Shown here: in pieces, positions 1,855-50,543 of the stretch | Layout: every line of letters starts with the position of its first letter | Numbering within the stretch: the first letter of the stretch is position 1 | Origin: an uncultured Acidobacteriota bacterium | GTDB taxonomy: Bacteria > Acidobacteriota > Vicinamibacteria > Vicinamibacterales > UBA2999 | Reading direction: 5' to 3' | Assembly: GCA_963713655.1 (NCBI GenBank) | Contig: CAVQMT010000046.1 | Location: 1,946 to 65,945, forward strand | DNA length: 64,000 nt | Made by a program: the position numbers and the translations under genes | The notes under the pieces: model-generated | What the model saw: only the letters and a program-made list of their open reading frames with translations | The model's database searches: none | What the model was told of the DNA's origin: nothing

Positions 1855-2346
1855 TCAAAGCAGCCGCTGCAGGAACACCAGGTCCAGACGCCGGCCGAAC
1901 TTGAAGCCTACCTCGCGCAGGTGCCCGACGCGCTCGAAGCCCAGCCGCTCGTGGAAGCGGATGGAGCTGGCGTTGTCGGCATCCACACCGGCCATCATGA
2001 CATGCTTGCCGAGCGCGCGGGCGCGCGCGATCAGCGGCTGCATCAGCGCCTGCCCCAGGCCGCTGCCGCGCCGGTCGGCCCGGACATGCACGGAATGCTC
2101 GACCGTATAGCGGTAGCCGGGCGAGGCGCGAAAATCACCGAAGCTCGCGAACCCGACTACCTCACCCTCCTCGACCGCGACCAGCACGGGATAGCCATGC
2201 GCGGCGCGAGCCTGCCACCACTCGCGGCGATCCTCGAGCGTGGCCGGATCGTCGCGATATACGGCCGTGGTAGTCGCGATGACGTCGTTGTAGATCGCCA
2301 GGACGCCAGCCAGGTCCTCCTCGCGTGCGTCCCGCACCTGCAGCAC
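1855..2346 (-). CDS. GNAT N-acetyltransferase (phosphinothricin/MSO acetyltransferase-like)
   Basis: 163 aa. Contains ...VLVAVEEGEVVGFASF... and the acetyl-CoA motif RRGSGLGQALMQPLIARARALG. Confidence 0.8.
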   Translation of the reverse strand: MLQVRDAREEDLAGVLAIYNDVIATTTAVYRDDPATLEDRREWWQARAAHGYPVLVAVEEGEVVGFASFGDFRASPGYRYTVEHSVHVRADRRGSGLGQALMQPLIARARALGKHVMMAGVDADNASSIRFHERLGFERVGHLREVGFKFGRRLDLVFLQRLL

Positions 2347-40494: not shown

Positions 40495-42527
40495 ATGAAG
40501 CAGAGCCCTTTCGGATCCTCGTCTCACGTCGTCTCGACGGTGTGCCCGCTCGACTGCCCCGACTGCTGCAGCCTGGACGTCACCGTGCAGGACGGCAAGG
40601 TGACGGAGATCGACGGATCGCACGCGAACCCGGTGACGGGCGGCTATATCTGCGCCAAGGTCCGCCGCTACCCCGAGCGCGTCTACGGCGAGGATCGCCT
40701 GCTCTACCCGGCGGTGCGGAAAGGGCCGAAGGGGCATGCGCGGTTCGAGCGCGTGTCGTGGGACCATGCCCTCGACCTCATCGCCACCCGGATCCACGAA
40801 GCCAAGGGCCGGTGGGGCGGCGAAGCGATCCTCCCCTACTCCTACGGCGGCTCGAACGGCCTGCTGACGCAGGACACGAGCGACGCCACGCTGTTCCGCC
40901 GGCTCGGCACGTCGCGCCTGGCGCGCACCGTGTGCGCGGCGGCCACCGGCGCGGCCAACCAGGCGCTCTACGGCAAGATGCCGTCGATCACCTACCAGGA
41001 CTTCCCCGAGGCGAAGTTCATCCTGCTCTGGGGCGTGAACCCATCGTCGTCCGGCATCCACATCATTCCCTACATCCGCGAGGCCCAGAAACGCGGCGCG
41101 GTGCTGGTGGTGGTCGATCCGGTGCTGACGCCGCTGGCCAAGCGGGCCGACGTCCACCTGGCGGTCAAGCCGGGCACCGACCTGCCCGTGGCGCTGGCGA
41201 TCCACCGGTATCTCTTCGAGCACGGCTACGCGGACCAGGGGTTCCTGGACGCCCACACGCACGGCGCCGCGCGCCTGCGGGAGAAGGCGCAGGCGTGGAC
41301 CTTCGACCGCGCCGCCGCGGAAGCCGGCATCGACGCCGGGGCGCTCGAGCGTGTGGCCGCAGCTCTACGCCACGACCTCACCCGCGCTCGTGAAGTGCGG
41401 CTGGGGCCAGGAGCGCAACCGCAACGGCGGCAGCTCGTCGATGGCCATCCTGGCGCTGCCGGCGGTGGCCGGCAAGTTCGGCGTCCGCGGCGGCGGCTTC
41501 GCCATGAGCAACACCAACGCGTGGCAGATCGAACGCACGTGGATCCGCGCCCAGGAGCCGGCGACGCGGCTGGTGAACATGAACCATCTGGGGCGCGCGC
41601 TCACCGAGTACCGTGACCCGCCGGTGCAGCTGCTGTTCGTCTACAACTCGAACGCCGCCGTCACGACGCCCAACCAGATGCAGGTGCTGAAGGGCCTGGA
41701 ACGCGAAGATCTCTTCACGGTGGTGTTCGATCAGACGATGACCGACACCGCGCAGTACGCCGACGTGCTGCTGCCGGCGACGACGTTCCTCGAAAGCTAC
41801 GATCTCCCGCGCGGCTACGGCTCGATCAGCTTGCGGCTCGGCCAGCCGGTGATCGAGCCGGTGGGCGAAGCCCGCAGCAACGCGGATGTGTTCGGCGAGC
41901 TGCTGCGGCGGCTGGATCTCAGTCAGGACGGCGACCCGCAGGGCGAGCTGGAAGAGGTGCTGGACGTCTTGTCGCAGGTGCCGGATCCGCGCGGGGGCCG
42001 AACTGCGCGAGCACGGCGTGGCCACCCCGCCGTACGGCGGGCGGCCGATCCAGTTCGTGGACGTGTTTCCGTGGACGGCAGACGGGAAGGTGCATCTCTT
42101 CCCGGCCCACCTCGACGCCGATGCGCCGGCAGGGTTGTACGGCTATCAGCCCGATCCCGCCACCGACGACTTCCCGCTGGCGCTCATCTCGCCGTCGAGC
42201 GATCGGACCATCACCTCCACCCTGTCCGAGCTGCCCCGGCCTGAGGTGCGGCTGCTGATCCATCCCGACGACGCCGGCCCGCGCAACATCGACGACGGCG
42301 ACGACGTGCGCATCTTCAATCAGCTCGGTGAGGTCCGGTGCCGCGCGCAGGTCGGGACCTGGATCCGACCGGGCACGGTGCTGCTGCCCAAGGGCCTCTG
42401 GCGCAAGCACACCAGGAACGGCTACACGGCCACGGCGCTCGCGCCCGATACGCTGACCGACCTCGGCGGCAGCGCCTGCTTCAACGACGCGCGGGTGCAG
42501 GTCGAGATGGTGCGCACGCTACACTAG
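40495..42527 (+). CDS. molybdopterin-dependent oxidoreductase (MopB superfamily), two frame breaks
   Basis: SD GGAGG precedes ATG 40495. The N-terminal Cys cluster is CPLDCPDCCSLDV...YICAKV. Pieces lie in ORFs 40318..41616, 41351..42244 and 41886..42527. Shifts are at about 41355 and about 41995. Confidence 0.8.
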
Positions 42528-42533
42528 TCCCTG

Positions 42534-44172
42534 ATGTCCGAGCACCGCAGGGTACGAAGGACGGCGGCGCACGCGCTGGTGGCGGCCGCCCTGCTGGCTT
42601 TTGCAACCGCGTCGTGCGCGCCCTCAGGCCCGCAGGACGCCAATCCCAACATCCCGCGCACCTCGAGCGGCCGCCCCAATCTGCAGGGGATCTGGCAGGT
42701 GCGCAACTCGGCGGCGGCGGATCTCCTGGATCACGCCGCGCGGCACGAGATGCGCGCCGGCCGCAGCGTCGTGGAGGGGAACGAGATTCCCTATCAGCCG
42801 TGGGCCGCGGCGAAGAAGATCGAGAACGCGGCCAACCGCGCCGCCGCCGATCCGCTGTCCAAGTGCTACATGCCGGGTGTGCCCCGGATCATGTACATGC
42901 CGCACCCGTTCCACGTCTTCCAGACCGACGACCACGTCGGCATCACCTTCGAGTGGTCCCAGGTGTTCCGGCTGATCTACACCAACGGCTCGAAGCCCCA
43001 CGACGGCATCGAGTTCTGGATGGGCGACTCGCGCGGACGATGGGAAGGCGACACGCTGGTCGTCGACGTGACCAACCACAACGACAAGACCTGGTTCGAC
43101 ATGGCCGGCAATTTCCACAGCGAGGCGCTGCACCTGGTGGAGCGCTTCACGATGACCGGCCCGGACACCATCCAGTACGAGGTCACCGTCGAGGACCCGA
43201 AGGTCTTCACCCGCCCGTGGAAGATCTCGATGCCGCTCCACCGGCACGCGAACATGGACCGGGTGCTGGAGTATCACTGCAACGCGGAAGCCGAGGAGGC
43301 GCGGGGCGACTTCGAGCGCGACCCGCGAACCTGGTACCCGGGCCCGTCGGCGCAGACTCCGCCGGCAACCCCGTCGCCGGACGAAGGGGCACCGGCCGGT
43401 CAGGCGAACCGGTCAGGCGCCCGCCGTTCAAGGCCCCGCCAGCCAGGCGGCCAATGGGTCGATTCGGCGCCTGCCCGACGGTAAACCGGACCTCTCTGGG
43501 CACTATCTACCCGACGGGGGCGGCGCGAACTACGGGCTCGAAACCCATCCTCAGGACTTCCTGACGCCCGGCGGCCGCGGCGTGATCGTGGACCCACCCG
43601 ATGGCCAGCTGCCGATGCTTCCCTGGGCCGAAGCGGAGCAGAAGAACCGCATGCTCCCCGAACGCGGCTACGACGACCCGACCGCGCACTGCTTCGTCGC
43701 CGGCGTGCCGCGGTCCATGTACACGCCGTCGCCGCTGCACATCCTCCAGCCTCCCGGCTACGTGGTGATCCTGTTGGAGCGCATGTCGTGGCGCGTCGTC
43801 CCGCTCGACGGGCGCCCGCACATCCCTGACAGCATCCGGCTGTGGCAGGGCGACTCGCTGGGGCGCTGGGAAGGCGACACCCTGGTCATCGAGACCAGGA
43901 ACCTGAACGGCAAGACGTGGTTGAACGAGGTCGGCGAAATCGTGAGCCATGCGGAAACCGTCGTCGAACGGTTGACGCCGGTGGACGCCGACACGATCAA
44001 CTACGAGGCGACCGTCACCGACCCCGTGGTCTACTCGCGGCCGTGGACGATCGCGCTGCCGATGAAGCGCCAGGCCGACGATCTGCTGGAAGTGGCGTGC
44101 CACGAGGACAACCAGGACCTGCAGCACTTGAAGGACGTGCGCGACGAAGCCCGCCGGAGGACGAGACGATGA
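42534..44172 (+). CDS. two-domain (internally duplicated) paralogue of 10229..11126, lipoprotein, one frame break in linker
   Basis: Lipobox LAFATASC. Domain 1 has KCYMPGVPR, GRWEGDTLVVDV, HSEALHLVERF and EDPKVFTRPW. The linker is PAGQA/TGQAPAVQGPASQAANGS. Domain 2 has HCFVAGVPR, GRWEGDTLVIET, SHAETVVERL and TDPVVYSRPW. The frames join if one a at 43407-43408 is removed. Confidence 0.6.
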
Positions 44173-44579
44173 AGAGGCAGATGAGGGTGGCCGCCGTTGC
44201 GGCCGTAGCGGTGCTGGCCGCGGGAACCGCGGCGGCGCATCACTCGTTCTCAGCCGAGTACGACGACAAGAAGCCGCTGAAAGTCACCGGAACGGTGACG
44301 ACGATGAAGTGGTCCAACCCGCACGCGTGGATTTACGTGGACGTCAAGGACAAGAGCGGCAAGGTGGTGAACTGGGCCTTCGAGACCGGGGGCGCCAACG
44401 CGCTCTACCGGCGCGGCTGGCGGAAGCAGGACCTCGTGCCCGGGACGGTCGTCACGATCGACGCCTTTCAGGCGCGCAACGGGACGCCCACGGCCAACGC
44501 GCAGAGCATCCTCATGCCAGACGGCACGCGCCTATTCGCCGGCTCCTCTTCGCCTACCGGGGGTACCGGGGCGAAGTAG
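44169..44579 (+). CDS. DUF6152-like small periplasmic protein (second copy)
   Basis: SD GGAGG is present, and the ATG overlaps the upstream stop. The sequence reads ...AAGTAAAHHSFSAEYDDKKPLKVTGTVTTMKWSNPHAWIYVDV... Confidence 0.65.
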   Translation: MKRQMRVAAVAAVAVLAAGTAAAHHSFSAEYDDKKPLKVTGTVTTMKWSNPHAWIYVDVKDKSGKVVNWAFETGGANALYRRGWRKQDLVPGTVVTIDAFQARNGTPTANAQSILMPDGTRLFAGSSSPTGGTGAK

Positions 44580-44691
44580 GAGCTGCGCCAGCGTCTCGAC
44601 CGCCGCGCCGACGGCTGATGCGTGTCGGCACGGCGGCCAGCGCGCAATGCGCGCCAAAAGGCAACATGACGAGCCAGGGCAATGCCCGTGG

Positions 44692-44934
44692 CTAGTTCAT
44701 CCCCGACTCAGCGCCAGCGCTCGGCTGGGGCGCCGCCGGGATGTGCACGAGACGGCCGCGGCCGCCGCGACTTACCTGCCCACCCTTGCGACCGGCGGCC
44801 CTGGCCTCTTCCGAGGTCCACTGGTGCGCGGTTCCTTTGAGGTGAGCGGCACGACCGCCCTTGCTGGCGATCTCGCGCTGCTTGTCCGACGTCATCGAGG
44901 CAAATCCTCGAGTGCTTTTGCGAAAATCGCTCAC
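44692..44934 (-). CDS. KGG-repeat general stress protein
   Basis: SD GGGAGGAAG precedes GTG 44934. The sequence reads RGFASMTSDKQREIASKGGRAAH...SEEARAAGRKGG. Confidence 0.7.
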   Translation of the reverse strand: MSDFRKSTRGFASMTSDKQREIASKGGRAAHLKGTAHQWTSEEARAAGRKGGQVSRGGRGRLVHIPAAPQPSAGAESGMN

Positions 44935-45180
44935 GGTATCTTCCTCCCTGTTTGCGCTCGGTATCCAATTACCGTCGCCATCCACTGACCAACCATGGGG
45001 GGTGCCCTCCAGTCTTCAAGCGGTGTGCCATAACGGATCAGTCAAGCTCAGCGCTCGAAAACCTAGCTGCTCGCGAACCGTCGATGCCTCAGCCAGTAGA
45101 AAGCACACGGCTGGCTGAAGTGGAACCGGACACAGTCACTCCAAGCTCATCCGTGTTGGCGGCCTAATGTTGGAGGTAAC

Positions 45181-45510
45181 ATGACCTTTATGAGCAATTG
45201 CGAGCCCTCTCCCGATCCGCCACTGAAGAATGCCAGCGGCCGCACGGTGAAGTGCGTCAAGTTCCAGAAAGATCTTCCGGGGCTCGATTCACAGCCCTGG
45301 CCTGGGCCCTTGGGCGAGCGTGTGTTCGAGAACGTCTCAGCGCAGGCCTGGAAACTCTGGGAGGAGCGTCAGAAGATGATCCTCAACGAGTACCGGCTGA
45401 TGCCGTGGCAAAAGGAAGCCCAGGACCTCATCGCCACTCAGATGGAAGACTTCTTCTTCGGCGAGGGCGCTGCGCTGCCGCCAGGCTACGTCCCGCAGCA
45501 GGCGAAGTAG
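45181..45510 (+). CDS. yggX: Fe(2+)-trafficking / oxidative-damage protection protein
   Basis: SD GGAGG precedes the ATG. CVKFQKDLPGLDSQPWPGPLGERVFENVSAQAWKLWEERQKMILNEYRL aligns with the YggX pattern. Confidence 0.75.
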   Translation: MTFMSNCEPSPDPPLKNASGRTVKCVKFQKDLPGLDSQPWPGPLGERVFENVSAQAWKLWEERQKMILNEYRLMPWQKEAQDLIATQMEDFFFGEGAALPPGYVPQQAK

Positions 45511-46816
45511 AGAAGGCTCCGGGCCGGGCTCCGGGCTCCAGGACGGCTAGACGACGCGGAACTTCCTTGTCGATGCGGAACTGCAGGCGCTCGTGGGCGG
45601 CGCGCAGCGCCGCGATGACCTCTGAGGGTTCGCCGGCACGGGCGAAGATGAAGCCAAGGTAGCTGCGGCCCTCGGGCAGCGGCACCAGGAGCGCATCGGT
45701 CTTCGCGGTAATGCGGACGTCGAGCACGCCCGGAACGGCCCGTGCATCTTCGACCCCTCCGACCTCGCGGAACACACCTCGCCGCGGGATGGGAATCATC
45801 ATCACGCCCGCCGCGGGCGCTTCGCGCACGACACTGCCGACGTCTTGCCCCAGCGCATGCCGGAGCAGCACCTCCTCCAGCGAGGCTTCGGCCTCGGATG
45901 CCGTCGTGAACCGCAGAGCACGCGCACAGAGCCCGCCAATCGGCCGCGGCGCCACTTCCAGTACGTAGACCCCCTGTTCGTTGACCCGGCACTCGGCGTG
46001 GATGGGGCCGTGGTCAAGCCCCAGGCCCTGCGCGGCCGTGGCGATCGCCGCGGTGATGGCCGCCTGTACCTCCAGCGGCTCACTGGAGGGCGTGACGTAG
46101 ATGGTTTCCTCGAAGAACGGGCCGTCCAGCGGATCCGGCTTGTCGAATATGGCGAACGTCTGCAGCCGGCCGTCCACCAGAACGCCCTCGACGGCTTTCT
46201 CGCGACCAGGGATGAACGACTCGATCAGGATGTAGCCGTGCGCCGGATCGCGCTCCTCGCCGACGTCCGGCGCGAGCAGCAGGCGGCGGACGCGCTCCAC
46301 GGCCGCAGCGCAGCCGGCCGCATCGTCCACGCGGATCACGCCGCGGCTGCCCGAGAGCGCGAGCGGCTTCACCACCGCGGGATAGGCGACGTGTGCCGAG
46401 GCCGGGGCGGGGCTGGCATCCGGAAGCACCAGGCTGAAGCGCGGCACCGGGAGGCCCACCGCCTGCAGGGCGCGACGCGTCAGCAGCTTGTTGCGGCTGC
46501 GCTCCGCCGCCTCGGCGCTGTTGCCCGGCAGGCCCAACGCCGAGGCGACGGCGGCGGCGAAGACGGCCGGCCGGTCGCCGACGGCCACGACACCCTGGAC
46601 GGGGCGATCCGCCAGCGCGGATTGCACCGCCCGCACCGACGCCTCTCGGTCGTGGAAGCGGACGGCGATCGCGCCGTCGCGCCACGGGTCATCGAGGTGA
46701 TCGCAGCGATCGCTCGCCACCACGAGCTCGATGCCCAGCTTGACGGCGGCCTCGCCGAACGAGCGAATCTGGTATCCGGTGGTCGTCGCCACCAACAGGA
46801 TGCGGGTCACGGCCAC
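45428..46816 (-). CDS. ATP-grasp domain protein (carboxylate-amine ligase-like); 3' end uncertain
   Basis: The GTG start is 13 nt after the rSAM stop. It has the pre-ATP-grasp motif RILLVATTTGYQIRSF, plus YPAVVKPLALSGSRGVIRV, ILIESFIPGRE and GPIHAECRV..VYVLEVAPRPIGG. The last roughly 40 codons read through the heptamer repeats and overlap yggX. The true stop is therefore probably earlier, hidden by an indel. Confidence 0.75.
   Translation of the reverse strand: MAVTRILLVATTTGYQIRSFGEAAVKLGIELVVASDRCDHLDDPWRDGAIAVRFHDREASVRAVQSALADRPVQGVVAVGDRPAVFAAAVASALGLPGNSAEAAERSRNKLLTRRALQAVGLPVPRFSLVLPDASPAPASAHVAYPAVVKPLALSGSRGVIRVDDAAGCAAAVERVRRLLLAPDVGEERDPAHGYILIESFIPGREKAVEGVLVDGRLQTFAIFDKPDPLDGPFFEETIYVTPSSEPLEVQAAITAAIATAAQGLGLDHGPIHAECRVNEQGVYVLEVAPRPIGGLCARALRFTTASEAEASLEEVLLRHALGQDVGSVVREAPAAGVMMIPIPRRGVFREVGGVEDARAVPGVLDVRITAKTDALLVPLPEGRSYLGFIFARAGEPSEVIAALRAAHERLQFRIDKEVPRRLAVLEPGARPGAFSTSPAAGRSLAAAQRPRRRRSLPSEWR
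45515..45547. repeat. heptamer-type repeats GGCTCC(G/A), about 4-5 units
   Basis: ggctccg ggccg ggctccg ggctcca ggacggc. They directly follow the yggX stop. Confidence 0.85.
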
Positions 46817-46828
46817 CTGCCGCCAGGG

Positions 46829-48186
46829 TCACAGAATGTCGAGCTGCTCGGGACCCGGTTCGGCGCAGCAGTACCACCCCTCTGTCAGATAGGGTGGCAT
46901 CATCCGCGCCGCCGGACGTGACCGGGACAGCCGGGGCCCCGGCCAGCGCCGCGATGGCCTCGAACACCAATGCGCGCGGCTCCCCCGCTTTCGCGGAGAC
47001 GAGCGCCATGACCTGACGCTGCAGTTCGTCCACTCGTACGTCGGCGTGTTGCCAGGGCCAGGTCAGTGAAGTCGGATCGAACGGCGCCAGCGACCGCGTG
47101 ATCTCCGGCAGTTCCAGCAGCGCGGACTCGGCGGTCACCAGCAGCCGGATGCCGAGCTGGATCGGCGCCACCGCTTCCACCAGATCCAGGCGCCGGATCG
47201 TCGCCAGCAGGTCGGCGTAGCCGTCCAGCGTCGTCCACGGCGTGAAGGGCACGAAGGTGGGCGAGAGCGCCAGGCCCGCGGCCCGGCACAGATCGACGGC
47301 GCGCTCGAAGTCCGCCCGCGTGTGGCCCTTGCGCAGGCGTTCGAGCACGGCATCGTCCACCGATTCCACGGCGCTGGTGATGAACAGACACCCCGTGGCG
47401 GCGAGCACGGGCAACAGCTCCGCGTGCACCAGGATGTGCTCGATCTTGATCGTGGCGTCGTAGCTGACACCCGGGTGCGCCGCCGCCAGCCGCTCGACCA
47501 GGCGGCGCGCGTGCGTGGGTCCGTTGAAGAAGTCGGGATCGCCGAAGGTGATGTGCTGGGCCCCGGCCTCTACCTGCGCGCGCACGTCGTCGAGCACGAC
47601 GTCGAGGGGAATGGCCTCGAAACGGCCGCGATACACCGGCACCACCGGGCAGTGCCGGCACAAGTGCTTGCAGCCGTGCGTGGCGTCGGTGTTGCCGACC
47701 ACGCGCCGCGAGCCGTCGGGCATCTGCAGGCTGGCGTACCGCGCCAGCGGCAGCAGGCCCGATCGGTCGGGCGTCACTGCAGGGCGGCGGGCCACCACGC
47801 GAGCCGGGCGCGTAGTCGCCGACCACCTCACCCGCCGCCAGCGCGGCAAGATCCGCGCTCGCCTCGGGGCCGAGCACGTAATGGACGCCCTGCTGGTGCA
47901 GCCAGTCGCGGTTCAGCGGCGCGTAGAGTCCGTAGGCGGCCAGCATGGCCTGGGGACGCGCGCGCCGGACGCGTGCGATGAGCGGCGCAGCCAGCCGGGT
48001 CGCCGTGTGCATCGGCAGGTACAGGCCCACCAGGTCCACGTCGTCGAGCCACGCGTCGTCGAACGGCTCGCGCGAGGTGTCGGCGCAGCGGACCTCGACG
48101 CCGGCGCCCCGGAGCGCCGACGCCGGCGCAGCTAGCCCACGAGGTTGGCGGCCGAGATCGTAGGTGGAGACCAGAAGGGCACGCAC
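46829..48186 (-). CDS. B12-binding-like/radical SAM protein with C-terminal CCAEP tail, two frame breaks
   Basis: GTG 48186 gives VRALLVSTYDLGRQP..., in the frame of ORF 46900..48348. After a shift at about 47830 the CX3CX2C cluster THGCKHLCRHCP appears in ORF 46689..47849. After a third frame change near 46900 the tail reads ...PPYLTEGWYCCAEPGPEQLDIL*. CCAEP spans 46856-46870, with the two Cys codons TGC TGC at 46865-46870. The stop is at 46829-46831. Confidence 0.75.
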
Positions 48187-48244
48187 GAACTCATTGTTCC
48201 ACGATATCCTTCGAGCCAGCCTGCGCCGCTCCTGGGAGACGTCT

Positions 48245-49630
48245 GTGAACCCACCGCTCACCACCACCACTGCCGGCGTCGCGCCGTCCACCGCGCACGA
48301 CCGGAGCTTCTTCGGCCACCCGCGGGGGCTGTCGACGCTGTTCTTCACCGAGATGTGGGAGCGGTTCAGCTACTACGGGATGCGGGCATTCCTCATCCTC
48401 TACATGACGGCGCCTGCCGCCGCCGGCGGCCTGGCCATGACGGATTCGGTGGCCACGTCGATCTACGGCACCTACACGGGATCGGCGTGGGGCGCGTCGA
48501 TTGTCGGCGGGATCATCGGCGACCGGTGGCTCGGGCAGTACCGCAGCGTGCTCCTCGGCGGGGTGGTCATCATGCTGGGCCACTTCGTGCTGGCGTTCCC
48601 CCCGCTGCCGTTTTTCTATGCCGGCCTCGCCCTGATCGTCATCGGCACCGGGCTGCTCAAGCCGAGCGTCAGCACGCTCGTCGGCTCGCTCTATCCCCAG
48701 GGCGACCACCGGCGCGATGCTGGGTTCTCGCTTTTCTACATGGGCATCAACGTCGGGGCGCTGCTCGGCCCGCTGGTCGCTGGCTATCTGGCGCAGCGCG
48801 TGGACTGGCACATCGGGTTCGCGTCGGCCGGCGTCGGCATGCTGCTCGGCGTCACGCAGCTCGTGCTCGGACGGCGGTACCTGCGGGCGGGCGTGGAACG
48901 GCTGGCGGAGCGCACTGCACCGGCCAGCAACCCGGCCGGCGTTGAACGTCCGCCCGCGGCATCTGGCGGCACCCTCGGATTCGGCAAGGACGAGTGGAAG
49001 CGGATCGCCGCGATCGCCCTGTTCTTCCTGTTCGGCATCCTGTTCTTCGCCGGCTACGAGCAGGCGGGCTCGACTTTGAATCTCTTCGCCGAACGCTACA
49101 CGCGGCTCGAGGTGTTCGGCTTCCCGTTCCCGTCGTCCTGGCTCCAGTCGGTCCAACCGATCTTCGTCATCCTGCTCGCGCCGATCTTCGCCTGGACCTG
49201 GACCAGGCTCGGAGCGAACGAGCCGTCGATCAGCGGGAAGTTCGCGCTCGGCTTGTTCTTCATGGGGTTGTCGATTCTCGTCATGGTGCCGGCCGCCGGG
49301 GCGGCGCAGGTTGCCGAGGGCGTGCGGGTGAGCCCCTGGTGGCTGGTCGTCTCCTACGCGATCTCGGAATTCGGCGAGATTTGCCTCTACCCCGTGGGCA
49401 TGAGCGCGGTGACGAAGCTGGCGCCACCCCGCATCGTCGGGCTGATGATGGGCGTCTGGTTCCTGTCCATTTCGTTCGGCAACAAGCTCGCCGGCTGGAC
49501 GGCAGGCTTCATCGAGTCGATGCCGCTCGCGACCTTGTTCGCGATCATGACCGGCGTGCTCGTCGGGGCGGCCGTCATCGTGGCCCTCCTAATCAAGCCG
49601 GTCTCGCGCCTGACCGGAGAGGCGCGATGA
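48245..49630 (+). CDS. POT/PTR2-family peptide:proton symporter
   Basis: SD GGGAGA precedes GTG 48245. It carries FTEMWERFSYYGMRA (ExxERFxYYG) and is polytopic. The gene is intact. Confidence 0.85.
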   Translation: MNPPLTTTTAGVAPSTAHDRSFFGHPRGLSTLFFTEMWERFSYYGMRAFLILYMTAPAAAGGLAMTDSVATSIYGTYTGSAWGASIVGGIIGDRWLGQYRSVLLGGVVIMLGHFVLAFPPLPFFYAGLALIVIGTGLLKPSVSTLVGSLYPQGDHRRDAGFSLFYMGINVGALLGPLVAGYLAQRVDWHIGFASAGVGMLLGVTQLVLGRRYLRAGVERLAERTAPASNPAGVERPPAASGGTLGFGKDEWKRIAAIALFFLFGILFFAGYEQAGSTLNLFAERYTRLEVFGFPFPSSWLQSVQPIFVILLAPIFAWTWTRLGANEPSISGKFALGLFFMGLSILVMVPAAGAAQVAEGVRVSPWWLVVSYAISEFGEICLYPVGMSAVTKLAPPRIVGLMMGVWFLSISFGNKLAGWTAGFIESMPLATLFAIMTGVLVGAAVIVALLIKPVSRLTGEAR

Positions 49631-49633
49631 ACC

Positions 49634-50543
49634 GTGGCGCTCGAGAGCTACCGTAAGAAGCGAGACTTCACCAAGTCGCCCGAGCCGGCCGGCGACAAGG
49701 CTGCGCAAATCACCGGCCGGCCGCAAGCCGCGCTTCTTCTGCGTCCAGAAGCACCTGGCCAGCCACCTGCACTACGACTTGCGGCTCGAGCACAACGGCG
49801 TGCTGCTGTCGTGGGCCGTGCCGAAGGGCCCGGCCATCGACCCCACCATCAAGCGCCTGGCGATGCACGTCGAGGATCATCCGGTGGAGTACGGCGAGTT
49901 CGAGGGCGTGATTCCGTCGGGCTACGGCGCCGGCATCGTCATGCTGTGGGACCGCGGCACGTGGACGCCGGAGGTGGACGACGTGGACGCGGCGCTGGCC
50001 AAGGGCGATCTGAAGATGACCCTCGACGGCTACAAGCTCAAAGGGTCCTGGGTCCTGGTGCGCACCAGGGGCTGGGGCAGCAAGGAGGGCAAGGCGGACG
50101 ACGGCCGCTCATGGCTGCTGATCAAGCACAAGGACGAATGGGCGGGCCCGATCGACATCGCCGAGTTCGCGCCGTTGAGCGTCAAGAGCGGCGGCGACTT
50201 CGCCGAGATTCTGTCGGCCGACGACCCGGACATCTGGCGCTCCAACCGGCCCGCGGAGGGCGGCGAGACGGGGAAGATGTTCGATTCGATCATCAAGCGC
50301 GCGCTGGCGATGAAGGCCGGAAGCGCCGACGAAGGCCCGGGCCACGGGCTACGGGCCAAGGCCCGACCAAAGAGCAAAGGCCAAAGCCGAGAGCCGGAAG
50401 CCGGAAGCCGCGAGCCAGAAGCCGGGAGCCGGAAGCCGGAAGCCGAGAGCCTAGAGTCCAAGCGCCGGCTGCGCGATCTTTCTCGAGCAGCCGTTGCGCT
50501 CAACACCGACCAGACCGCGAACGACAGCCGGCGACGGTCGTGA
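49634..50543 (+). CDS. LigD 3'-phosphoesterase-domain protein; one frame break, 3' end uncertain
   Basis: GTG 49634 gives ALESYRKKRDFTKSPEP. After a shift at about 49720 it continues KPRFFCVQKHLASHLHYDLRLEHNGVLLSWAVPKGP...HVEDHPVEYGEFEGVIP. The ORF then reads through the 50365-50462 heptamer array. Confidence 0.7.
50365..50462. repeat. largest heptamer array, about 14 units of G(C/A)C(C/A)(G/A)(G/A/C)A type
   Basis: gaccaaa gagcaaa ggccaaa gccgaga gccggaa gccggaa gccgcga gccagaa gccggga gccggaa gccggaa gccgaga gcctaga gtccaag. Both convergent ORFs are open through the array. Confidence 0.95.

Follow-up and report, generated by a model that had tools for sequence, protein, structure and literature searches.

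An ArsL-related radical SAM enzyme with a CCAEP tail is encoded in a conserved gene module with an amino-acid-ligase-type ATP-grasp enzyme and an iron or iron-sulfur helper

In a 64,000-nucleotide stretch of contig CAVQMT010000046.1 (assembly GCA_963713655.1, from an uncultured Acidobacteriota bacterium; hereafter the window), we analyzed a gene for a radical S-adenosylmethionine (SAM) enzyme that ends in a Cys-Cys-Ala-Glu-Pro (CCAEP) tail, together with its neighbors. The gene is followed by an ATP-grasp gene with the architecture of an L-amino-acid ligase (LAL) and then by a convergent yggX gene. Comparison with two sets of 80 related loci showed that the radical SAM enzyme, the LAL, and YggX or an Nfu-like protein form a real, widely conserved soil-bacterial gene module. 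The nearest characterized relative of the enzyme is ArsL, which makes the carbon-arsenic bond of the antibiotic arsinothricin (bioRxiv 10.1101/2024.02.01.577332). We tentatively propose, with somewhat less than even confidence, that an ArsL-like reaction yields a methionine-like amino acid, which the ligase would turn into a dipeptide, while an iron (Fe) or iron-sulfur (Fe-S) helper serves the radical SAM enzyme. The module, its parallel in ArsL clusters, its DUF169 and Fmt-like partners, and the predominance of selenocysteine (Sec) in soil, freshwater, and other metagenome assemblies were found described nowhere; the family itself has already been named.

The frame-corrected radical SAM protein matched the NCBIfam equivalog model NF040546, "CUAEP/CCAEP-tail radical SAM (seleno)protein", with 563.6 bits (E 3.2e-169, cutoff 500) over residues 4-449 and profile positions 2-467 of 468, and Pfam Radical_SAM (PF04055) with 52.3 bits against a cutoff of 29.5. 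By these matches it is a bona fide member of the family in its Cys-Cys form, as the first-pass annotation of this DNA had proposed. The gene itself, its CKHLCRHC motif, the paired TGC codons, and the tail were all found where that annotation had placed them. The WYCCAEP segment occupies residues 437-443 of the corrected protein and can be read only without an inserted T at 46916; W-Y-C-C-A-E-P was invariant across 68 aligned homologues, and the three cysteines of the cluster motif were invariant in an alignment of the CCAEP/CUAEP family with ArsL. A database search returned at least 8000 candidates at E <= 1e-10, by which count the family is very large. No functional study of the family came up in literature searches on CUAEP, CCAEP, ArsL with ATP-grasp, and ArsL with selenocysteine, and the sole paper found to name it lists it among rare Cys-Sec selenoproteins and calls it uncharacterized (Haft preprint), in agreement with the earlier statement that it has no assigned function.

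The protein consists of an N-terminal Rossmann-type (B12-binding-like) domain, a radical SAM barrel, and the C-terminal tail. The Pfam B12-binding model (PF02310) stayed below threshold (21.1 bits against 32.1). An AlphaFold2 model of P0001, the intact 451-aa homologue encoded by the 216-kb metagenome contig L001, was obtained with a pLDDT of 92.6 and a pTM of 0.91. Its best structural matches were AprD4 (TM 0.68), TsrM, OxsB, MgmA, and MiaB, in all of which a Rossmann-type domain precedes the barrel, so the earlier wording "B12-binding-like" is apt as a description of the fold. The tail segment 431-440 reached a pLDDT of 84, meaning that it is modeled with fair confidence and is not predicted to be disordered. 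A sequence search of the PDB for a solved close homologue returned AprD4 alone (E 5e-7) and no ArsL structure. NCBIfam and Pfam scans of the locus proteins found no SPASM/twitch or RiPP-recognition domain (RiPP, ribosomally synthesized and post-translationally modified peptide).

The neighbors were compared in a first sample made of the best 80 of 582 relatives, one genome per species (L003-L082, hereafter the genome loci), with partner homologues found by tblastn. This sample is biased toward the window's relatives: most are Acidobacteriota of several orders, joined by some Gamma- and Betaproteobacteria, Dormiibacterota, Anaerolineales, Acidimicrobiia, and Methylocapsa. The results showed that a ligase homologue (41-64% identity) adjoins the radical SAM gene in 63 of the 80 loci, and YggX in 52. 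Among the 50 loci with at least 3 kb on each side (fully flanked), the ligase was adjacent in 45, YggX in 38, both together in 38, POT in 11, and DUF169 in 3. Ligase adjacency spans Acidobacteriota, Beta- and Gammaproteobacteria, and Dormiibacterota, and the radical SAM stop usually lies 0-150 nt from the ligase start. A DUF169 gene (PF02596) with four conserved cysteines was found in 5 of the 80 loci, either between the radical SAM and ligase genes or directly after the former. De novo clustering of the neighboring open reading frames (ORFs) of the 80 genome loci gave no further broadly common gene, and LigD_N, the KGG stress protein, the Mo-oxidoreductase, aconitase, and CofD near the radical SAM gene represent lineage synteny.

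A second sample (L087-L166) consisted of 80 metagenome loci centered on the homologue (43% identity to the window protein) that Thermomicrobium roseum carries on its megaplasmid. These loci represent a distant clade with the tail WFC[U/C]AEP; the one locus scanned, L090, scored 740.8 bits on NF040546. Here the ligase was adjacent in 15 of the 80 loci, upstream or downstream and on either strand. YggX was adjacent in 26, as a rule co-directional and some 51 nt upstream (for example, of the L090:7678-8013 type), and a NifU/NfuA-like gene lay directly downstream in 15 (for example, L092:2538-3137 and L159:4080-4361). One or the other Fe or Fe-S helper was thus adjacent in 41 of the 80 loci, and both together never, as if one replaces the other. 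A formyltransferase similar to Fmt was adjacent in 17 loci, divergent and upstream of the YggX-radical SAM pair (for example, L090:6651-7616); it contains Formyl_trans_N and Formyl_trans_C, and its best NCBIfam model, methionyl-tRNA formyltransferase, gave 143 bits against a cutoff of 201.5. DUF169 was adjacent in 8 loci (across both samples, DUF169 loci include L056:4543-5262, L059:11710-12438, L063, L077, L039:11405-12190, and L095:3206-3949), and POT in none. A pyridoxal-phosphate-dependent aminotransferase and an MFS transporter beside the T. roseum gene had been considered as partners and were rejected, since they were not kept in the 80 related metagenome loci.

Taken across the family, the most persistent partner is the Fe or Fe-S helper. 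The ligase dominates in the window's clade and recurs elsewhere; the other recurrent partner enzymes act on amino groups of amino acids. The operon of radical SAM and ATP-grasp genes proposed in the first-pass annotation is therefore supported by conservation in both samples. The same annotation had missed both the convergent yggX gene, which encodes the most persistent kind of partner, and the homology to ArsL. It had also counted the POT transporter as a partner, which holds in part: POT lies within 3 kb upstream of the radical SAM gene in 19 of the 80 genome loci, and within 300 nt in 16 of them (13 divergent, 3 co-directional). Given its absence from the distant clade, the link is real in the window's clade and restricted to it.

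The second-best NCBIfam model for the window protein was NF040542 (ArsL, RCCLKC-tail radical SAM), with 237.7 bits against a cutoff of 450; the same model gave L090 312 bits over its full length, and the third-best model reached at most 46 bits. The window protein can accordingly be classed as a homologue of ArsL and not as a member of that family, with ArsL by far the nearest characterized family by profile score and the CC/CU-tail family as its sister. By tblastn of plasmids, RCCLKC-tail ArsL genes were 29-31% identical over residues 1-394. The alignment is collinear through an N-terminal GxQP, the cluster motif, FxDxDF, T(S/T)A(V/L)E, PTFxxFxPW, and the terminal Cys-Cys, and the CC(U) pair of the family aligns with the arsenic-binding CC of the ArsL tail. 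Reconstituted ArsL cleaves SAM at the C-gamma-S bond to give a 3-amino-3-carboxypropyl (ACP) radical and methylthioadenosine (MTA) and adds this radical to As(III) bound by the tail cysteines; deletion of the tail abolishes activity (bioRxiv 10.1101/2024.02.01.577332; bioRxiv 10.64898/2026.04.29.721666). Among radical SAM enzymes of canonical fold, it has been described as the only one to break the "wrong" bond of SAM and to form a carbon-heteroatom bond (bioRxiv 10.64898/2026.04.29.721666). According to a 2026 review, ArsL accepts trivalent arsenicals in methylated form as well, and methylarsenate is handled most efficiently by a tail variant named "MCCA" (PMC13598754); the natural tail of the window's family reads YCCA-EP.

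We opened three ArsL clusters, on plasmids of Klebsiella pneumoniae (L084:5001-9740), Bacillus cereus AH820 (L085:1139-9143), and Alicyclobacillus acidocaldarius (L086:2118-9257). All three contain an ATP-grasp gene of LAL architecture, 25-27% identical to the window ligase, and in B. cereus and Alicyclobacillus, the two searched, its best PDB match was BL00235. Because the ArsL clusters also carry a BL00235-like LAL, the pairing of a tailed radical SAM enzyme with a LAL is common to both sister families. This suggests that arsinothricin-containing peptides may be made in the ArsL clusters; the search for ArsL with ATP-grasp found no paper on such a ligase. As transporters, the Klebsiella and Alicyclobacillus clusters encode an MFS protein, and that of B. 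cereus a phosphate transporter and an MIP channel. Every cluster has a CobW-type GTPase, ArsM occurs in the Klebsiella and Alicyclobacillus ones, and ArsN1 is present among the three. An AhpD-like carboxymuconolactone-decarboxylase gene was observed next to the ligase in the B. cereus and Alicyclobacillus clusters.

The second tail cysteine was replaced by TGA (selenocysteine), with in-frame AEP after it, in 47 of 78 genome loci (31 CC) and in 62 of 73 metagenome loci (11 CC), so that the window represents the minority Cys-Cys form in both samples. Past CCAEP, the C-terminus closes with a conserved acidic-x-hydrophobic pattern. The Thermomicrobium roseum gene, WP_012643191, carries the tail TGA; its RefSeq coding sequence ends there and leaves the tail unannotated (L083:9357-9440). 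Five loci ending in ...WYC and lacking the ligase had raised the idea that selenocysteine forms go without it. This was ruled out by the counts, the ligase being adjacent in 25 of 29 CU and 19 of 20 CC loci.

The window ligase scored above the gathering scores of three Pfam models (ATP-grasp_4, 94.1 bits; LAL_C2, 59.3; ATPgrasp_N, 41.7). Its best PDB match was BL00235 (3VOT, E 4.5e-38), followed by BacD and RizA, and it matched RimK and cyanophycin synthetase marginally only. No NCBIfam equivalog cutoff was reached (BacD, 47 bits against 850; DdaF, 29 against 840). The enzyme has the domain architecture of an L-amino-acid ligase, and dipeptide formation is predicted. BL00235 makes Met-Gly and Met-Met (PMC6920838) and thus takes a gamma-substituted 2-aminobutanoate. 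The product of yggX was identified by NF003817 (115.8 bits, cutoff 74) and PF04362 (115.2 bits).

As the sequence stands, the radical SAM gene (GTG start at 48186, TGA stop at 46829-46831) spans three reading frames: the first gives MRALLVSTYDLGRQP...DYAP, the second holds ...GCKHLCRHCPVVPVY... and most of the barrel, and the third ends in ...PPYLTEGWYCCAEPGPEQLDIL and a stop. For correction we used L001, found by database search. The DNA is 99% identical to L001 across the gene, the protein is 97-98% identical to P0001, and the window copy contains exactly two surplus bases, G 47805 and T 46916. Their removal gave an uninterrupted 451-aa ORF with the tail ...GWYCCAEPGPEQLDIL before the stop. 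It differs from that of L001 in 14 codons, 12 synonymously and 2 non-synonymously, and, read in the corrected frame, none of the 6 changes past the first frameshift alters an amino acid. Because the substitutions are mostly synonymous, including those six, the frameshifts are best read as assembly errors or very recent events and not as old decay, and the pattern has the signature of purifying selection, not of an old pseudogene. All 120 best database homologues carry CCAEP (110 of them with an identical CKHLCRHC), so the tail is no artefact of the correction.

Against the 97%-identical contig L001, the window showed 67 gap openings over 11.6 kb, and further genes in it are split by frameshifts, among them the Mo-oxidoreductase (molybdopterin) gene at 41351-42527 and LigD_N (LigD 3'-phosphoesterase domain) at 49634-50543; from these observations, a generally indel-noisy consensus is the simplest reading. 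L001 is flawed too, its PTR2 and LigD_N genes being fused. The same kind of error affects the ligase gene, which starts with GTG 12 nt past the radical SAM stop. The first-pass annotation had correctly called this gene and had run its ORF down to 45428, an end that is artefactual, as 2 nt are missing near 45555/45556 relative to L001. The true stop is most likely the TAG at 45549-45551, about 120 nt before the raw ORF end, which would give 421 aa and no overlap with the convergent yggX. The coordinates of the locus are listed in Table 1.

Table 1. Genes, motifs, and spacer of the radical SAM locus (positions in the window)
Feature	Position	Strand	Remarks
CCAEP-tail radical SAM gene	46829..48186	-	451 aa after removing G 47805 and T 46916; NF040546 and Pfam Radical_SAM matches
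L-amino-acid-ligase-type ATP-grasp gene	45549..46816	-	about 421 aa, probable; Pfam ATPgrasp_N, ATP-grasp_4, LAL_C2
yggX-type Fe(2+)-trafficking / oxidative-damage-protection gene	45181..45510	+	convergent with ligase; NF003817 and Pfam Iron_traffic
POT/PTR2 di/tripeptide:H+ symporter gene	48245..49630	+	TIGR00924 364.4 bits; Pfam PTR2 220.7 bits
Divergent spacer between radical SAM and POT genes, 58 bp	48187..48244		POT start GTG 48245 as in L001
CxxxCxxC motif C-K-H-L-C-R-H-C, radical SAM [4Fe-4S] ligation	47649..47672	-	direct sequence reading
C-C-A-E-P tail motif	46856..46870	-	TGC TGC codons 46865-46870; 8 more residues, then stop

The 58-bp divergent region between the radical SAM and POT genes was found as the earlier annotation had described it. 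On its minus strand, 48187-48215 reads GGATATCGTGGAACAATGAGTTC-GTG. A motif GGATA(T/A)CGTGGAACAATG, with the window copy GGATATCGTGGAACAATG, stops 6 nt 5' of the radical SAM GTG and is common to L001, L002, and L007; a related GAATAG-N9-10-CATACAATG occurs in L004, L006, and L009. The ACAAT in the spacer resembles a -10 element very near the radical SAM start codon, and the transcript might be leaderless or near-leaderless. A scan of 45000-48500, spacer included, for consensus sigma-70 promoters found none, and a terminator scan of the same interval gave one terminator-like site inside the radical SAM gene, at chance level. Rfam at permissive thresholds over 44000-50500 returned a single chance-level match (E 0.94).

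Several less widespread neighbors were also observed. A gene for a KGG-repeat general-stress protein (44692-44985, minus strand) adjoins yggX, and the same layout in 19 of the 80 genome loci marks it as lineage synteny. Genes for a thiopurine-S-methyltransferase-like (TPMT) protein and a PilZ protein lie 0.1-1.5 kb downstream of the radical SAM gene in two related gammaproteobacterial loci only (L048:2269-2985, L061:12367-13050), and a 1-Cys peroxiredoxin gene lies near it in L039 and L050 only; with two loci each, these were set aside as evidence. An IscA-type gene stands beside YggX in the gammaproteobacterial locus L057. A search for conserved ORFs of 20-75 aa at the 80 genome loci gave shadow or lineage-specific ones only, none in the window and none kept in more than 10 of 80 loci, which agrees with the first-pass finding of no precursor-peptide ORF. 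One of them, a Cys-rich ORF of about 69 aa (MEPEERHRCCWYGRR...CAHPM...RNCEDCD...), lies just past yggX in 10 Vicinamibacterales-type loci other than the window (L010:3630-3839, L019, L022, L008, L015, L018, L014, L017, L012, L020).

On this basis, the following pathway can be proposed. From its family membership, the enzyme would carry a [4Fe-4S] cluster on CKHLCRHC that reductively cleaves SAM. If homology to ArsL extends to the chemistry, cleavage would occur at C-gamma-S and yield an ACP radical, and by analogy with the aligned ArsL CC this radical would be captured by a soft heteroatom held on the tail Cys-Cys, or Cys-Sec in most relatives. This would give a gamma-hetero-substituted 2-aminobutanoate, an amino acid resembling methionine. 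The adjacent ligase, whose architecture fits this role, would then condense it with a second amino acid at the expense of ATP to give a dipeptide, the choice of substrate being our assumption. POT might, speculatively, move the dipeptide across the membrane in the window's lineage, and in the distant clade the Fmt-like formyltransferase may mask the amino group instead. YggX (Nfu or IscA elsewhere), to judge from its recurrent and mutually exclusive adjacency, would supply or repair an oxygen-labile or sacrificial Fe-S cluster. The two-ligand tail suggests a site suited to an atom that is mono-substituted or two-coordinate, for instance in methylarsenite or a selenium or sulfur species.

Several observations weigh against this proposal. 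An identity of 30% does not fix the regiochemistry of SAM cleavage, so that ACP chemistry is carried over here by homology, and we know of no residue set that dictates an ACP over a 5'-deoxyadenosyl radical. An invariant Cys265 and a PMHTATR motif are specific to the family and absent from ArsL, which uses three tail cysteines where the family has two; that the "MCCA" variant is a two-cysteine tail is our reading of the review text. The ligase is absent next to the T. roseum gene and adjacent in just 7 of 30 fully flanked distant-clade loci, and hence is not obligatory. Sequence conservation is high (50-65% identity across phyla) and the family occurs very widely, which resembles housekeeping or stress physiology more than an antibiotic pathway. 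In addition, homologues of ArsM, ArsN1, ACR3, ArsC, ArsR, CobW, and MIP (aquaporin) were searched for within 10 kb of each of the 80 genome loci, and none was found.

The strongest rival explanation is that the enzyme uses a canonical 5'-deoxyadenosyl radical to act on a free amino acid or dipeptide (for example by epimerization, rearrangement, or C-H functionalization), with the tail as a mobile redox arm or hydrogen-atom donor and the ligase making or consuming the substrate. We consider it possible, although on balance doubtful. The CxxxCxxC motif and the fold are those of ordinary radical SAM enzymes, and AprD4, the closest solved fold, is a 5'-deoxyadenosyl-radical enzyme. Interchange of Cys and Sec, seen here as 47 CU to 31 CC and 62 to 11 loci, is typical of redox-active catalytic residues, and redox arms have precedents in the GCUG tail of thioredoxin reductase and the C-terminal dithiol of ribonucleotide reductase. 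The extra Cys265 could be a redox partner in the active site, and neighbors of the oxidative-stress type occur, YggX widely and peroxiredoxin in 2 loci. However, ArsL, the only characterized close homologue, binds its substrate by the aligned CC and makes an ACP radical, and neither thioredoxin nor thioredoxin reductase is a conserved neighbor in either sample. Selenocysteine is also a metal or metalloid ligand in other proteins, and CU motifs have been tied to the handling of heavy atoms (Haft preprint).

A sub-case of the proposed pathway is specific to arsenic: the two-thiol tail would bind methylarsenite and give trivalent arsinothricin in one step without ArsM, and the ligase would convert it into a dipeptide pro-drug. 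Vicinal Cys pairs form the methylarsenite-selective site in ArsI and in one ArsR, and a LAL and a transporter are also found in ArsL clusters. Methylarsenite further has experimental precedent in the acceptance of methylated arsenicals by ArsL and its MCCA variant (PMC13598754). Nevertheless, we judge this variant unlikely and do not favor arsenic, because the 10-kb surroundings of the 80 genome loci are devoid of ars genes, which leaves an arsenic substrate without the contextual support that ArsL has in its ars islands. No ArsN1-type self-resistance gene is adjacent, and the family exceeds ArsL-bearing arsenic islands by far in distribution and also in conservation. The only arsenic-type match in the window is a GNAT gene at 1858-2346 (minus strand), 44 kb from the radical SAM gene and 29% identical (E 3e-18) to Alicyclobacillus ArsN1; it may encode a generic phosphinothricin/ArsN-type acetyltransferase.

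A RiPP or protein-modifying system seems very unlikely; in it, the substrate of the radical SAM and ATP-grasp enzymes would be a precursor peptide or a protein, perhaps the tail of the radical SAM enzyme itself. Radical SAM and ATP-grasp pairs do occur in RiPP clusters, and the conserved acidic-x-hydrophobic end past CCAEP counts in its favor. Yet no small ORF is kept beyond 7-10 of 80 loci, the gap between the two genes leaves no room for one, and RiPP-type accessory domains were not found. The ATP-grasp enzyme has LAL domains and resembles BL00235, BacD, and RizA, with RimK and cyanophycin synthetase marginal. The first-pass suggestion of "a small-molecule or peptide-modification pathway" can thus be narrowed: the small-molecule alternative is much better supported, and the lack of a precursor ORF and the LAL-type ligase speak against peptide modification. 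Finally, it is highly improbable that the window copy is a decaying pseudogene with neighbors adjacent by chance, to which the two frameshifts in the radical SAM gene and one in the ligase gene might point, since against L001 it has 12 synonymous and 2 non-synonymous differences, the 6 past the first shift are silent throughout in the corrected frame, indels spread through the whole window, and the adjacency is kept across phyla.

Returning to ArsL-like chemistry, a broader reading is that CC/CU-tail enzymes are a second, far more widespread "wrong-bond" branch of the ArsL type, in which the ACP radical is caught on a heteroatom other than inorganic arsenic. The resulting new organo-heteroatom amino acid would be masked, in soil Acidobacteriota and numerous other bacteria, as a dipeptide by the LAL or as an N-formyl derivative by the Fmt-like enzyme, with YggX or Nfu as a dedicated helper; we put this forward with low confidence. 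Selenium, sulfur, tellurium, antimony, or methyl-arsenic species may be the heteroatom held between Cys and Cys/Sec. If the chemistry of ArsL is shared, the family would bring to light natural amino acids of a new class and a novel role for selenocysteine, and would supply ready-made catalysts for carbon-heteroatom bond formation. Experimental handles are provided by the Met-type amino-acid ligase, YggX or Nfu, DUF169, and the Fmt-like formyltransferase, and Thermomicrobium roseum DSM 5159 is a cultured, sequenced carrier of a family gene.

Compared with known systems, vicinal Cys-Cys or Cys-Sec pairs near a flexible C-terminus, as here, are found in the GCUG tail of thioredoxin reductase, the CC tails of MerA and HgcB, and the CU motifs of the Haft preprint; these proteins have unrelated folds, so the likeness is an analogy only, and no flavin or mercury genes occur in the neighborhood. 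AprD4 (6FD2), TsrM, OxsB, and MgmA share the Rossmann-type domain and barrel with the window enzyme, but enzymes of the AprD4 type are only about 20% identical to it and have no Cys-Cys/Cys-Sec tail. BL00235 (3VOT), BacD/YwfE, and RizA have the same three-domain LAL architecture as the window ligase, but unlike it they are not coupled to a radical SAM gene. ArsL is similar in its two-domain architecture, its CxxxCxxC motif, and a vicinal cysteine pair within a few residues of the C-terminal end. It differs in its RCCLKC tail with three thiols, against WYCCAEP with two thiols (or a thiol and a selenol) in the window's family, which also has about 40 extra residues ahead of the tail. The conserved partners differ as well, being YggX or Nfu here and ArsM, ArsN1, and CobW in the ArsL clusters.

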